This document shows positions 3,135 through 14,141 of a stretch of DNA of 18,636 bases, in pieces. The notes under the pieces are model-generated. The model saw nothing but the letters and a program-made list of their open reading frames with translations. It ran no database searches and was not told the origin of the DNA. A program made the translations under genes and the position numbers. Every line of letters starts with the position of its first letter. The stretch's first letter is position 1. The DNA lies in IMG/VR virus record IMGVR_UViG_2547132278_000016; one strand, given 5' to 3'. This DNA comes from a virus. Lineage: Duplodnaviria > Heunggongvirae > Uroviricota > Caudoviricetes.

Positions 3135-3737
3135 ATGAGCTATTTTCTGCGCAAAAAATGGATGGTAAATTTGTCCGGGTCAGGAAAAATTTTATGGGCG
3201 CTAAACATGAAAAAAGATTCGTATCCTTATTTGATTTGCATGACAGTTTCAGGGCTGATCTTTATTTTCCTTTTCTTCTGGTGGCGGGCAGATATCTACA
3301 GGGTCACGTTTCTTAATCAGAGTATATCCCACTATTACATTCTGTTTAGCATGGGAATAGCTTTTCTGTTATCTCTGTTTTGGGTTAAGAAGGGGATAGT
3401 AAAACAAAGCGGCTGGAAGAGTCTGTCAGCATACCTTAAGGTTTATGCAGGGATGTGCATATTTGCTGGATTTTTTCTGATTATACCCCTTACGACACTA
3501 ACTTATTTTTTGCCTGGAGAGACATCGTCTTATGTTGCACCGTATCGGTATACTTCCGGTAGTTCAAAAAGTTGTTCTGGAGCTGAGGTGGATGACCCCG
3601 ATCTACATGAGAATATTCGCATTTGCTATCCGTATGGCAATTATGAGTACGATAATATTATCTATGTTGAAAAGAAAATTAATATATTAGGTGCGGTAGT
3701 GACATATGCACAGACCGCGCGTGATGATACTGAATGA
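3135..3737 (+). CDS. Hypothetical integral membrane protein (about 3 TM helices plus a ~70-aa Cys-containing C-terminal domain); accessory gene
   Basis: 200-aa ORF on the strand opposite the flanking leftward operon; hydrophobic segments LICMTVSGLIFIFLFFWW, YILFSMGIAFLLSLFWV, VYAGMCIFAGFFLIIPLTTL; AT-rich context; start uncertain (in-frame ATGs at 3135, 3162, 3207; MKKDSYPY… at 3207 looks like a typical membrane-protein N-terminus). Confidence 0.6.
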   Translation: MSYFLRKKWMVNLSGSGKILWALNMKKDSYPYLICMTVSGLIFIFLFFWWRADIYRVTFLNQSISHYYILFSMGIAFLLSLFWVKKGIVKQSGWKSLSAYLKVYAGMCIFAGFFLIIPLTTLTYFLPGETSSYVAPYRYTSGSSKSCSGAEVDDPDLHENIRICYPYGNYEYDNIIYVEKKINILGAVVTYAQTARDDTE

Positions 3738-3771
3738 TATAGTATATAGCGGGCAAGTTTTAGTTAATTTA

Positions 3772-3800
3772 TCGAGGTAATATAATTTACCTCGACTCGT
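3772..3800 (+). terminator. Putative terminator after the membrane-protein gene
   Basis: 9-bp inverted repeat TCGAGGTAA / TTACCTCGA (3772-3780 / 3787-3795) followed by a moderately T-rich stretch. Confidence 0.35.
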
Positions 3801-3947
3801 TTGTTCTGGTATTAATATTTCGCTTTACGACCGATTTTTATCTGATGATATCATGCGGTTTTCATATACTGACTTACTGTCTTTTCTCCGTTAGCGATTT
3901 TCTCCTGCTCAGCGATGATTTTATCTTTGGCTTCTAGTTAATTTCGC

Positions 3948-4169
3948 TCACTTCGAACCTCTCTGTTTACTGATAAGCTCCAGATCTTGCTGGCAACTGG
4001 CACAAGTCCGACAACCCTGAACGGCCAGTCGTCTTCGTTCATCTATCGGATCGCCACACTCACAACAATGAGTGGCAGATATAGCCTGGTGGTTCAGGCG
4101 GCGCATTTTTATTGCTGTGTTGCGCTGTAATTCTTCAATTTCTGATGCTGAATCAATTATGTCTGCCAT
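3948..4169 (-). CDS. TraR/DksA-family C4 zinc-finger protein (lambda Orf73-like)
   Basis: 73-aa ORF with CxxC…CxxC (CCECGDPIDERRRLAVQGCRTCASC), typical of TraR-like proteins. Confidence 0.75.
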   Translation of the reverse strand: MADIIDSASEIEELQRNTAIKMRRLNHQAISATHCCECGDPIDERRRLAVQGCRTCASCQQDLELISKQRGSK

Positions 4170-4267: not shown

Positions 4268-4483
4268 TCACCGTTCCTTAAAGACGCCGTTCAACATGCC
4301 GATCGCCAGGCTTAAATGAGTCGGTGTGAATCCCATCAGCGTTACCGTTTCGCGGTGCTTCTTTAGTACGCTACGGCAAATGTCATCGACGTTTTTATCC
4401 GGAAACTGCTGTCTGGCTTTTTTGATTTCAGAATTAGCCTGACGGGCAATGCTGCGAAGGGCGTTTTCTTGCTGAGGTGTCAT
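4268..4483 (-). CDS. Hypothetical phage protein (71 aa)
   Basis: ORF in the leftward operon; start taken at internal ATG 4483 (MTPQQENALRSIARQ…), which overlaps the stop of the upstream small ORF (ATGA). Confidence 0.55.
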   Translation of the reverse strand: MTPQQENALRSIARQANSEIKKARQQFPDKNVDDICRSVLKKHRETVTLMGFTPTHLSLAIGMLNGVFKER

Positions 4484-4563
4484 TGAACAAGCCCCATGTC
4501 GGCAAGCATAAGCACACAGAATATGAAGCCCGCTGCCAGAAAAATGCATTCAGTGGTTGTCAT
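4480..4563 (-). CDS. Putative 27-aa hydrophobic peptide, translationally coupled on both sides
   Basis: Hand translation MTTTECIFLAAGFIFCVLMLADMGLVQ; its ATG overlaps the stop of the upstream ORF (ATGA) and its stop overlaps the ATG of the downstream ORF (ATGA). Confidence 0.3.
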   Translation of the reverse strand: MTTTECIFLAAGFIFCVLMLADMGLVQ

Positions 4564-6885: not shown

Positions 6886-7018
6886 TTTTTGGGACTCCTG
6901 GCTGATTAAGTATGTCGATAAGGCGTTTCCATCCGTCACGTAATTTACGGGTGATTCGTTCAAGTAAAGATTCGGAAGGGCAGCCAGCAACAGGCCACCC
7001 TGCAATGGCATATTGCAT
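6854..7018 (-). CDS. cIII: CIII (FtsH inhibitor stabilising CII)
   Basis: Hand translation of the - strand from ATG at 7018: [54 protein letters not shown] (54 aa); below the ORF-track cutoff. Confidence 0.85.
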   Translation of the reverse strand: MQYAIAGWPVAGCPSESLLERITRKLRDGWKRLIDILNQPGVPKNGSNTYGYPD

Positions 7019-7090
7019 GGTGTGCTCCTTATTTATACATAACGAAAAACGCCTCGAGTGAAGCGTTATTGGTATGCGGTAACGCCGCGC

Positions 7091-11140: not shown

Positions 11141-11838
11141 AAAACATCGCCGCACAGATGGTTAACTTTGACCGTGAGCAGATGCGTCGGATCGCCAACA
11201 ACATGCCGGAACAGTACGACGAAAAGCCACAGGTACAGCAGGTAGCGCAGATCATCAACGGTGTGTTCAGCCAGTTACTGGCAACTTTCCCGGCGAGTCT
11301 GGCTAACCGTGACCAGAACGAACTGAACGAAATCCGCCGCCAGTGGGTTCTGGCTTTCCGGGAAAACGGGATCACCACAATGGAACAGGTTAACGCAGGA
11401 ATGCGCGTAGCCCGTCGGCAGAACCGACCATTCCTGCCATCACCCGGGCAGTTTGTTGCATGGTGCCGGGAAGAAGCATCCGTTATCGCCGGACTGCCAA
11501 ACGTCAGCGAGCTGGTTGATATGGTTTACGAGTATTGCCGGAAGCGAGGCCTGTATCCGGATGCGGAGTCTTATCCGTGGAAATCAAACGCGCACTACTG
11601 GCTGGTTACCAACCTGTATCAGAACATGCGGGCCAATGCGCTTACTGATGCGGAATTACGCCGTAAGGCCGCAGATGAGCTTGTCCATATGACTGCGAGA
11701 ATTAACCGTGGTGAGGCGATCCCTGAACCAGTAAAACAACTTCCTGTCATGGGCGGTAGACCTCTAAATCGTGCACAGGCTCTGGCGAAGATCGCAGAAA
11801 TTAAAGCTAAGTTCGGACTGAAAGGAGCAAGTGTATGA
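11137..11838 (+). CDS. P: Replication protein P (DnaB helicase loader)
   Basis: 233-aa translation MKNIAAQMVNFDREQMRRIANNMPEQYDEKPQVQQVAQIINGVF… matches lambda P; ATGA overlap with the O stop. Confidence 0.95.
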   Translation: MKNIAAQMVNFDREQMRRIANNMPEQYDEKPQVQQVAQIINGVFSQLLATFPASLANRDQNELNEIRRQWVLAFRENGITTMEQVNAGMRVARRQNRPFLPSPGQFVAWCREEASVIAGLPNVSELVDMVYEYCRKRGLYPDAESYPWKSNAHYWLVTNLYQNMRANALTDAELRRKAADELVHMTARINRGEAIPEPVKQLPVMGGRPLNRAQALAKIAEIKAKFGLKGASV

Positions 11839-12008
11839 TGGGCAAAGAGGCAATTATTCATTACCTGGGGACGCACAAGAGCTTCTGTGCGCCGGACGTT
11901 GCTGCGACAACAGGTGTGACATTAACCAGCATAAATCAGGCTGCGGCAAAAATGGCGCGGGCAGGAATCCTGGTCATTGATGGTAAGGTCTGGCGAACGT
12001 TTGTTTAA
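11835..12008 (+). CDS. ren: Ren-like protein, C-terminally truncated (57 aa)
   Basis: Hand translation MMGKEAIIHYLGTHKSFCAPDVAATTGVTLTSINQAAAKMARAGILVIDGKVWRTFV* resembles the N-terminal half of lambda Ren (~96 aa); similarity ends near 12000. Confidence 0.6.
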   Translation: MMGKEAIIHYLGTHKSFCAPDVAATTGVTLTSINQAAAKMARAGILVIDGKVWRTFV

Positions 12009-12154
12009 CGGTTAGCTACTCAGGATGATAGGGCGGGGCAAGTGAGTATGAAGCGGATTTTCAGGAATGCCATCAGAGTTTGGAAATAAAGTGGGTTTTC
12101 TAGTGGCAAGAGACTTGATAATATTTAGTTCTTTGAATCCAAGGAGATAGGGTT

Positions 12155-12650
12155 ATGAGAAAATTTATTTTAGCCTTTGTTATAAGTGCCTCGTTTACAG
12201 CAAATGCTGGTGTAGAGAAGTTAGGGCCGTGGATAACAAAGTCTGAGATAAATAAAATGACTGACCAGACTGACTTTGTGGCCCTTAATTTATCACCAGA
12301 TTCATATAACAAAGCAGGTACTGATCGTGCAACTTCACTGGTGTTGCGTTGTAGTGATAACAAAACAGATGCCTATTTATCATTCAATGATTATATGGGT
12401 TCGGACAACCCAAGAATTACAGTGCGGTTAGATGGGCGGAAAGCCGGTCAAGAGTGTTTGGGGAGGTGGGGAAGGCGGTGATTCTGCATTTGCTCCACAA
12501 CCAATACAATTTATAAAGACCTTGGCTAAGCATAAAAAAGCTATTTTTGGGTTTGAACCTTATGGATCAACTATGCAAGTAGTTGAGTTTGACTTGTCTG
12601 AGATTGATAAGGTTGTGGAAAAAATTTCACAGTCTTGCAATTGGAAATGA
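12155..12650 (+). pseudogene. Secreted/periplasmic hypothetical protein gene split by an apparent frameshift (ORFs 12155-12481 and 12432-12650)
   Basis: AAGGAGA RBS then ATG 12155; signal peptide MRKFILAFVISASFTANA; reading frame ends in a G-rich stretch (GGGGAGGTGGGGAAGGCGG) while an overlapping frame continues to 12650. Confidence 0.5.
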
Positions 12651-12667
12651 CAAAAAAATTTCATATG

Positions 12668-12695
12668 AACCCAGTTTGCGCTGGGTTTTTTATTT
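12668..12695 (+). terminator. Intrinsic terminator
   Basis: Stem AACCCAG/CTGGGTT (loop TTTGCG) followed by TTTTTTATTT, about 20 bp after the stop at 12650. Confidence 0.6.
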
Positions 12696-13279
12696 CAGTA
12701 GCCAATAATGCATTCAAAATCTCTTACTTGAGAAACGGCCTATTTGAGATTTCAGTCGTGGCAGGATGATCAGTTGATTCGAGTATTGACGCATTTGCGT
12801 TCGGAGCGATTACAGTAGATTGTAAATAATAATGAGAAACACATAGCCACCCCGTGGTATTGAAACCATATAATGTTGGATTTGAAAACAGATCTTTTCC
12901 CATGTATTAATAACTACATCCCCGCGAGTGATTCAAAAAGGAGGGCCCAATTTTGTCCGAGTTTTTGTATTCCCCCGCATGCCGCTGCGGAGCACTACAT
13001 CTGAGTGTCTGACTAGGGGATAAAATTAGACTGGATAGTGAGAAGAAAGTGGCGCGCTAGGCTGTGCCGAGTGCTACCAGTACACCTTGGGGGTGTGCAG
13101 CTTTCGCCGAGACTGTAGTGGGTATCGGTTAATGCACGAAAAACCGAGAGGTCAGACAACCAATTTGCCGTAGGATTGTTTCCGGTGCGATACCGGTCTA
13201 CTAACTGAAAGCAATGCGAAAAAGCATAAACTCGGTCCTTCAGTCGCCCTACACACTATTTACTAAGAAGGGCTGAAGC

Positions 13280-13479
13280 ATGGATACAATTATTACATGG
13301 ATGGGAGATCGTCTGTTGGGGGGACACAAAAATCCGATCTGCGGCAGATGGCGATCACTGGATTAACTTCCGCGATTTGTTCAACAATTTTGTACACTGA
13401 AAAATTAAAACATGGTGAGCCTATTAACCCAAACGAAGAAGAAAAACTTTATAGGCTTTGGTATGAAGGAAACGCTTGA
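13280..13479 (+). CDS. Small hypothetical ORF with a G6 tract separating the RBS-linked start frame from the long frame (possible pseudogene or frameshift-prone gene)
   Basis: AGAAGGG then ATG at 13280 (MDTIITWMGDRLLGG…, stops after 28 codons); track ORF 13297-13479 is in another frame; the two frames meet at GGGGGG 13318-13323. Confidence 0.3.
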
Positions 13480-13685
13480 AAGAATAAAGCACAATTAAAA
13501 CCTTTGATTTGCGATAATCAACTTGCCATAATTAAGTAATCGGAGTCTGAACAACTCCGGTGACTTCTGCGCTAAACGGGGACGTTTATGCGCACATACA
13601 ATCCAAACTATCTTCTCCTTTCACAGATGCAGAAATGCACCTGCAATTCTTTGCATCTAGCGTTTGACCTCTGCGGAGGTGAAGC

Positions 13686-14141
13686 GTGAACCTCCCACAA
13701 GACGGCATCAAATTACATCGCGGCAACTTCACCGCTATCGGCCAGCAGATCCAGCCTTATCTGGAGGAAGGCAAATGCTTTCGCATGGTGCTTAAACCGT
13801 GGTGCGAGAGACGCAGTCTTTCCCAGAATGCACTCAGCCACATGTGGTACAGCGAAATCAGTGAATACCTCATCAGCAGGGGTAAAACGTTCGCCACTCC
13901 AGCTTGGGTAAAAGATGCTCTCAAACACACATATCTCGGTTATGAAACCAAAGACCTGGTTGATGTCGTAACCGGTGATATCACCACTATCCAGTCGTTA
14001 CGCCATACCTCCGATCTTGATACCGGAGAGATGTATGTCTTCCTGTGTAAGGTTGAAGCCTGGGCGATGAATATTGGTTGCCACCTGACTATTCCACAGA
14101 GCTGCGAGTTCCAGCTGCTGCGCGACAAGCAGGAGGCGTAA
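13686..14141 (+). CDS. ybcN: YbcN-like protein (151 aa), nin-region gene as in DLP12
   Basis: 151-aa ORF, GTG start with GGAGGTG upstream; sequence and size match remembered E. coli YbcN. Confidence 0.8.

Follow-up and report, generated by a model that had tools for sequence, protein, structure and literature searches.

Evidence for a new family of structured RNA upstream of exchangeable cargo genes in lambdoid prophages of Enterobacterales

Lambdoid phages use promoter-proximal structured RNAs for antitermination, as known for put of HK022 and nut of lambda. In a different type of system, a structured RNA neutralises the toxin of a prophage abortive infection (Abi) system, in cis as well as in trans (PMC12373285). 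The locus described here is part of the IMG/VR virus record IMGVR_UViG_2547132278_000016, a stretch of 18,636 nucleotides (nt), referred to below as the window, which is a lambda/DLP12-like prophage. Positions 12918-13250 of its plus strand encode a structured non-coding RNA of 333 nt, for which structure, strand, boundaries, distribution and modular context could be defined. On comparison with its relatives, it appears to represent a new and well-supported structured RNA family. The RNA is located in a segment (12010-13685) in which an earlier note, made from the sequence alone, had found nothing recognisable. That note proposed no RNA and left the part around it as filler without open reading frames (ORFs). 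The absence of ORFs was confirmed, as the stretch of approximately 12709-13296 contains none of 60 codons or more (the longest, of 59 amino acids (aa), is on the minus strand), and the same stretch turned out to be the most conserved part of the interval.

Homologues, fold and strand of the RNA

The first homologue was found by a distant-similarity search of phage genomes, in which positions 12918-13246 aligned with Klebsiella phage Kp4856-1 at 78% identity, long invariant blocks alternating with variable blocks. Pattern scans of IMG/VR and metagenomes followed by BLAST yielded 91 full copies, comprising 32 distinct sequences with 70-100% identity, while look-ups via homologues of the downstream gene ORF A added further copies in Enterobacter and Obesumbacterium prophages. 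The RNA is present in 158 of 5426 complete Escherichia coli genomes (~3%), once per genome, and the annotation under it was 'none' among the matches listed. It is also found in four deposited phage genomes, with viable phages including IdasGreatGrand, Turner and Kp4856-1. The carriers are lambdoid phages and prophages of E. coli, Klebsiella, Enterobacter and Obesumbacterium. No match was obtained in a plasmid collection, and two pattern scans of the GTDB species-representative genomes gave no true match, only two chance matches in Bacillota and in a Dehalococcoidia metagenome-assembled genome. A covariance model of the RNA matched the window once, at 12918-13250 on the plus strand (381.6 bits, E ~1e-136), and gave no match in K-12 DLP12 or in prophages with other cargo.

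Searching the whole window against Rfam 15 (4227 covariance models) at gathering thresholds gave only Lambda_thermo at 6973-7031. With E values up to 10, the region 11900-13800 gave only C0465 (17.8 bits against a cut-off of 40, E=4.9), a match which was rejected as it merely represents the terminator hairpin at 12667-12697. ARAGORN predicted 0 tRNA or tmRNA genes in the window. The RNA was not described in the literature searched by sequence words, topic and gene name, a search which did not cover one possibly relevant 2026 preprint; a 50-genome survey of non-coding RNAs and the preprint on the Pas small RNA do not cover it either.

Prediction of the consensus structure by RNAalifold, based on an unbiased MAFFT alignment of 25 sequences, resulted in 85 base pairs, 18 of which show compensatory double changes. 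As controls, the pairing partners were slid by 1-3 columns, and 500 shuffles were made per alignment. For these 85 pairs, 97.4% were paired compared to 33-45% in the slid controls, and 126 double-change cells were counted compared to 8-20, a value reached by none of the 500 shuffles. After fitting 33 distinct sequences (70-100% identity) to the model, 82 nested pairs were 97.7% paired (32-45% slid) and contained 155 double-change cells (10-21 slid), again with 0 of 500 shuffles reaching the observed value; in this alignment 20 pairs covary. The fold comprises about 16 helices, arranged in domain 1 (12918-13021) and domain 2 (13029-13246), both on the plus strand.

Two tertiary helices were found by a compatibility scan of the unpaired columns, and are jointly 99.1% paired compared to 27-44% when slid. 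One is a kissing loop between the P3 loop CACUAC (12993-12998) and the P6 loop GUAGUG (13115-13120), which is 98.7% paired and occurs in four covarying versions (CACUAC/GUAGUG, CGCAAC/GUUGCG, CACCAC/GUGGUG and CAUCAC/GUGAUG). The other is a 7-bp pseudoknot of UCUGACU (13008-13014) with GGUCAGA (13150-13156), 99.4% paired in 25 sequences and with a C-G to U-A double change in L086 (loci compared with the window are given L numbers). Because both contacts bridge domains 1 and 2, the RNA is predicted to be compact. A small 3-bp hairpin at columns 234-245 was not adopted, being broken in L074 and L086, which keep the long-range helix that was taken in its place.

The plus strand is fixed by G-U/A-U and G-U/G-C alternations (e.g. 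pairs 20-49, 115-329 and 231-320 of the 33-sequence alignment), since these would be A-C mismatches on the opposite strand. A coding function was considered and rejected: the sole recurring mini-ORF suffers a 1-nt indel in L074 and L086 and lacks a conserved start codon, and its would-be synonymous third-codon positions are nearly invariant. In base composition the RNA forms an island of 50-51% G+C within surroundings of 33-45%.

A reading as a CsrA sponge was dropped, as the five GGA motifs are at about the number counted for chance. The search for trans targets within the window gave only 12-mers at chance level. A perfect 12-nt complementarity was seen between the invariant RNA segment GACUGGAUAGUG (13029-13040) and the ybcN coding region (13985-13996); it is at about chance level for the search space and is not kept in Klebsiella ybcN.

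Transcription signals and the downstream cargo

A sigma-70-like promoter of the RNA was predicted on the plus strand at 12882-12911, with the -35 box TTGAAA at 12882-12887, a TG-extended -10 box at 12903-12911 and a start at A12918. Among 21 diverged homologues, only TTGAAA/TTGTAT, the spacing and TGT+T(T/A)A(A/T)AT are kept upstream of the RNA, and the A/T-rich hexamer ends 5-6 nt before the conserved first A. These motifs suggest a sigma-70 promoter of the extended -10 type. A strict consensus scan omits it, because the -10 box has no canonical A at position 2 in many members, and for this reason the use of this promoter is put forward as a prediction.

In many homologues (e.g. L065 and L068; 12860-12881 in the window), the -35 box is adjoined by an A-tract and an imperfect palindrome (ACCATA-N5-TATGGT), which might serve as an operator or an UP element. 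A different palindrome is found at this site in the Klebsiella subtype. In L164 (E. coli FG92-1, 1748-2501), the promoter and all sequence to its left have been lost to an IS1 element, which lies about 55 nt upstream of the start of the RNA, while the RNA and the nin genes are retained together with an intact ORF A. The homology of FG92-1 starting at the RNA start had been considered as an alternative promoter context, and is explained by this IS1 truncation.

An intrinsic terminator is located 8-15 nt after the last RNA helix in 16 of the 22 homologues examined (stem e.g. ACCGCC-N4-GGCGGU, followed by a T run). Apart from the subtype of the window, to which we return below, no canonical terminator follows the RNA in the subtype with cargo D (L074, L097) and in L090. 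Since the terminator lies clear of the last helix and its sequence varies from subtype to subtype, no antiterminator alternative is visible. Together with the unrelated genes downstream, this sets the arrangement apart from a riboswitch or an attenuator.

At least five unrelated families of small genes were found downstream of the RNA, starting about 25-35 nt after the terminator. Cargo A, decayed in the window, encodes 118 aa and cargo B 178 aa with hydrophobic stretches at both ends. Cargo C (183 aa; L096/L005) includes RLRHNLLH, judged by eye to be an R-x4-H motif like that of HEPN nucleases, and cargo D (177 aa; L097/L074) starts with MKNIIIDSNAW, by eye a PIN-domain-like first strand. Cargo E consists of two ORFs of 95 and 162 aa. 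No match of cargo A-E was found in Pfam, NCBIfam or PADLOC, including the ToxN/AbiQ, CptN, TenpN and Abi_2 HEPN families, and only PHROGs of unknown function could be assigned. The cargo is followed by a ylcH-like block and then by ybcN or ninB. Cargo type is shuffled with respect to RNA subtype, as in L074 (cargo D) and L086 (cargo B), whose RNAs are of nearly the same type. In L057 no cargo follows the RNA and its terminator, and cargo relatives without the RNA occur elsewhere, namely a 39%-identical homologue of B in L115 and a 51%-identical homologue of A in L170.

In the window, the cargo position is occupied by the decayed gene ORF A (PHROG 12412/8527; 13280-13479, plus strand), with its ATG at 13280. 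The intact form encodes 118 aa (L004 4551-4907), and a form of 66 aa is found where a G tract has seven residues (L002). Because this tract is G6 in the window (13318-13323), the frame from ATG 13280 stops at 13366 and a second frame runs over 13297-13479; the latter is the small ORF with a G6 tract that the earlier note had listed. In addition, 123 nt of the 3' half (L004 4744-4866) are missing from the window. Both the G6 (window, L001 type) and the G7 (L002 type) alleles occur in several complete genomes, and the difference could reflect slipped-strand switching or simple decay. A model of protein A gave a five-helix bundle with a predicted local distance difference test (pLDDT) score of 82.8, for which a fold search of PDB found no significant match.

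Mosaic structure of the surrounding interval

According to the annotation of a near-identical E. coli prophage, the gene order in the window is bet, gam, kil, cIII, sieB, cI, cro, cII, O, P, ren, ybcN, ninE, ybcO, rusA, ylcG and quuD. The full-length match to the lambda cIII thermoregulator (Rfam RF01804, 6973-7031, minus strand, 88.5 bits) agrees with this order and confirms the lambda-type left operon. The ren pseudogene is located at 11835-12103 (plus strand); in L001, L002 and L003, the corresponding stretch is annotated as 'protein ren; frameshifted; internal stop'. BLAST similarity to L004, which has a full-length gene at the ren position, stops at 12023, close to the 12000 at which lambda-like similarity had been said to end inside ren. 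On the right, the resumption of DLP12-like similarity, earlier placed at ybcN (13686), had to be moved to the ylcH segment at 13503.

Over its full length, the interval 12010-13685 matches 58 complete E. coli genomes at 99-99.9%, and is labelled there only 'TagO', 'hypothetical protein' or nothing. The earlier proposal of a recombination hotspot with a different payload is supported by its mosaic structure, with joints near 12023, 12730, 12800 and 13468-13503, and by the other genes carried there by L003, L004 and K-12 DLP12. Segment 12024-12729 is common only to prophages of the L001/L002/L003 type, 12730-12800 to all three prophage types, and 12801-13468 to L004-type prophages, whose left neighbours are emrE, ylcJ, ybcK and the antirepressor remnant; from 13503 onward, the sequence is common to more than 2700 E. 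coli genomes including K-12 DLP12. As the note had stated, K-12 DLP12 carries different cargo, annotated as ren::IS3, emrE, ylcJ, ybcK, ybcL, ybcM and ylcH. The emrE-ylcJ-ybcK-ybcL-ybcM genes are not found between ren and ylcH in the window, the shared part being 13503 onward. L003 (E. coli EC9952) lacks segment 12801-13468 and has two other genes in its place, encoding hypothetical proteins of 108 and 181 aa. Its intergenic gaps of 372 nt (3640-4012) and 146 nt (4338-4484) gave no match with the covariance model of the RNA. Of the contents called unrecognisable in the note, the odd ORFs proved to be decayed genes (VasI/TagO-like and ORF A) and the ORF-free stretch a structured RNA gene.

The frameshifted secreted-protein gene of the earlier note is present as two ORFs (12155-12481 and 12432-12650) which form one gene of 164 aa in relatives. 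This VasI/TagO-like gene (PHROG 1848; 12155-12650, plus strand) is intact in L001 (6146-6640), and over 2.1 kb the sole difference between the window and L001 is one extra G at 12434. The extra G (12432-12434) is absent from all 25 best-matching complete E. coli genomes, the best matches differing by exactly that base, and may be a private mutation or a sequencing error. The protein matches phrog_1848 (E=2.7e-70), a PHROG of unknown function, and marginally Pfam PF11319 VasI (26.7 bits against a cut-off of 26.5); its RefSeq name is 'type VI secretion system-associated protein TagO', and no relative was found in PDB. Its N-terminus MRKFILAFVISASFTANA reads as a Sec signal peptide. The gene is an extra, decayed moron to the left of the RNA. 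It is followed by the intrinsic terminator that had been reported (12667-12697, plus strand; hairpin at 12667-12688 with a 9-bp stem and a 4-nt loop, then a T run). Further downstream, 12730-12818 (plus strand) is a 3' remnant of an antirepressor-like gene (P22AR C-terminal domain), which aligns with the end of the L004 coding sequence 3766-4089 and is also present in more than 300 E. coli genomes.

To the right of the cargo, the 'ylcH' leader (13503-13685, plus strand; L106 6501-6683 in K-12 DLP12) comprises a promoter-like site, three hairpins and a short ORF. The promoter scan matched TTGATT-17-CATAAT at 13504-13532. The hairpins at 13539-13561, 13569-13593 and 13624-13643 have the loops CCUGAACAA, GGGA and GAAA, respectively, and two of the three are closed by GNRA loops. 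Compensatory changes were found in hairpins 1 and 3, and hairpin 2 was read directly from the sequences. The short ORF (13588-13689; 33 codons in the window, 31-33 overall) has a stop overlapping the start of ybcN (13686-14141, plus strand), which is the first gene of the DLP12-like nin block according to the ORF list and the annotation in relatives. Since the amino acids of the short ORF change where a hairpin covaries, the RNA structure seems to be the selected feature here. The leader has no Rfam match. In L074, L086, L097 and L105, a ylcH-like block is present on both sides of the unit of RNA plus cargo (approximately -320 to -160 and +915 to +1080, counted from the start of the RNA); in the upstream copy a Shine-Dalgarno sequence is retained, but the gene that it preceded is gone. 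Recombination between repeated leaders, exchanging the cassette, seems to have left this footprint, and the ylcH leader and the RNA probably supply the homology for the exchange of cargo. With a conserved promoter-like site and a three-hairpin leader, the annotation of 'ylcH' in K-12 DLP12 as a mere hypothetical protein deserves a second look.

Possible roles of the RNA and comparison with known systems

The reading favoured here, with a probability of about 45%, is that the RNA is an autonomous gene (an RNA 'moron') made in lysogens, acting independently of the gene that follows it. It is preferred because of the size of the RNA, its tertiary contacts, its strongly conserved unpaired nucleotides, its independence of neighbours and the terminator that does not interlock with the fold; we infer that the promoter is used, that lysogens express the RNA, that it acts in trans and what kind of partner it has. 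Transcription would start from the sigma-70-type promoter at about A12918, and the product would fold into the ~16 helices, locked by the interdomain kissing loop and the pseudoknot. In most relatives the transcript would end at the strong intrinsic terminator 8-15 nt past the last helix, giving a discrete stable RNA in lysogens. This RNA may work through its fold; in conflicts between phage and host or between phages, it would most likely bind proteins as a scaffold or a decoy, and its action would not run through a particular downstream gene. The downstream position would be a swap-in slot for unrelated small cargo, with the RNA as its left edge and the ylcH leader as its right edge, and homology for the exchange of cassettes would come from these two conserved non-coding blocks. 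While the cargo of the window is a pseudogene, the RNA there has exactly the sequence found in many other prophages.

A wider proposal is possible, if tentative. Where RNAs are this large and complex, they are usually ribozymes, elaborate sensors or scaffolds of ribonucleoproteins. The RNA could be the founding member of a new class of large tertiary-structured RNAs of Enterobacterales temperate phages, serving as a ribonucleoprotein scaffold, sensor or ribozyme in lysogens, and could also act as the fixed 'driver' of an exchangeable cargo cassette, for instance by sensing infection and releasing the defence or conversion gene behind the terminator.

Several observations weigh against an autonomous RNA. 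The promoter, the 5' end and the stability of the transcript are predicted from sequence, with a -10 box deviating from the canonical form in many members as described above. The minimum free energy of the single sequence is ordinary (z = -0.86), and single-sequence folding energy was uninformative on either strand. The E. coli subtype of the window has no terminator behind the RNA and ORF A begins 30 nt on, so that in this subtype the RNA could be a simple 5' leader. Furthermore, every close homologue of cargo A or B (found in IMG/VR, Enterobacter and Obesumbacterium) directly follows the RNA, and the cargo has no room for a promoter of its own; transcription must therefore pass through the RNA, which fits a role in cis.

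The last two points also speak for the main rival, a rather doubtful reading in which the RNA is the regulatory partner of the cargo. Promoter, structured RNA, leaky terminator and effector would then form a unit in which the RNA gates read-through, neutralises the product, or both. The constant position of the RNA on the same strand and immediately upstream, with the terminator between, is consistent with such a unit, for which AbiF/RCd22 offers a precedent (PMC12373285). The cargo genes themselves are small, fast-evolving and of unknown function and lie in a prophage hotspot; one product has transmembrane ends, and the PIN-like N-terminus and the R-x4-H motif seen by eye point in the same direction, neither with a database match. 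However, at least five unrelated cargo families share one RNA and are shuffled relative to its subtypes, and the two can be found apart, the RNA with no cargo in L057 and relatives of the cargo with no RNA in L115 and L170. Tandem repeats of the kind found in type III antitoxins are absent, as is a visible antiterminator alternative in the RNA and terminator. The cargo proteins match no family in PADLOC and no toxin or Abi family in Pfam, and protein A models as a plain five-helix bundle with no significant fold match.

That the RNA is a cis-acting element of the early-right operon is unlikely. Such an element, of the put, nut or leader type with a terminator and at the place of lambda tR2, would control transcription from the replication genes into nin and Q, e.g. 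by modifying RNA polymerase. Its position between O, P, ren and the nin block, in operon orientation and with a terminator behind it in most relatives, would suit this role, the antitermination RNAs of HK022 and lambda are a precedent, and a boxB-like hairpin (AUGC-GAAAAA-GCAU) is conserved within it. Against this, the RNA has its own conserved promoter-like motif, is absent from most lambdoid prophages including K-12 DLP12, exceeds put 4-5 times in size and folds into a globular shape with tertiary contacts; in addition, no boxA-like element is conserved outside the helices and the E. coli subtype has no terminator. Readings without an RNA product are very improbable. The conserved sequence would then be an element acting as DNA, either a site of recombination or a single-strand structure, or the remains of a protein gene, or it would encode a UUG-initiated peptide (MSEFLYSPAC...). 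A Shine-Dalgarno-like AAGGAGG followed by UUG and a frame of 16-19 codons is present in most members, and the flanks of the RNA are recombination joints. The motif is lost in L074 and L086 (GUUGG and GGUGG), where the indel mentioned above breaks the frame, would-be synonymous sites hardly vary, and in none of the six frames does an ORF reach 60 codons. These readings are also opposed by the compensatory changes, seen in 20 pairs and in two tertiary helices, with a G-U asymmetry marking one strand.

E. coli and the lambdoid prophages have been heavily searched, yet they and isolated phages contain an unannotated RNA in which about 16 helices are combined with a pseudoknot and a kissing loop. 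As a new RNA class in a tractable host, it is directly testable. Its fixed place before fast-exchanged small genes points to a general way in which temperate phages may express or control accessory, possibly defence, genes, and the RNA offers a nucleotide-level landmark for locating such cargo.

Among the described systems, type III toxin-antitoxin loci (ToxIN, CptIN, TenpIN) and the AbiF/RCd22 prophage module, which has abiF RNA motifs (PMC12373285), share the order of promoter, structured RNA, intrinsic terminator and promoterless small gene, as well as their location on prophages and mobile elements. This layout, with a terminator between the RNA and the promoterless gene, was found in the same 16 of 22 homologues and not in the subtype of the window. 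The antitoxin RNAs of type III and AbiF systems consist of small motifs or of short repeats in tandem, and a single cognate toxin family binds and processes them, whereas the RNA described here is a single two-domain molecule of 333 nt without repeats, followed by at least five unrelated proteins and sometimes by no cargo. A search of 11900-13800 at a minimum score of 30 gave no tandem repeats, only one direct repeat of 15 nt at chance level. Retron msr-msd and DRT RNAs are also structured non-coding RNAs beside variable effector genes on prophages; no reverse transcriptase gene was annotated or called among the neighbours at the loci examined, and no Rfam retron or DRT match was obtained.

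With ROOL and GOLLD, the RNA shares the properties of a large and highly structured prophage RNA with conserved unpaired nucleotides and long-range contacts, independent transcription being predicted here. In contrast to these, it has no Rfam match even at E values up to 10, is smaller (333 nt), and occurs in lambdoid prophages of Enterobacterales, in a window without tRNA genes. HK022 putL/putR, lambda nut and the PR'-6S RNA-tR' unit resemble it as promoter-proximal structured RNAs followed by a terminator in a lambdoid transcription unit, and its position before the nin genes is equivalent to that of tR2. Those elements, however, have 15-200 nt, simple stem-loops and defined boxes, with no sequence resemblance to this RNA, which is moreover optional. 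As in lambdoid morons, the RNA gene is an optional insert between conserved phage genes (158 of 5426 genomes) with a different G+C content, a conserved promoter-like motif of its own and, in most relatives, a terminator, while the product is a structured RNA instead of a protein.

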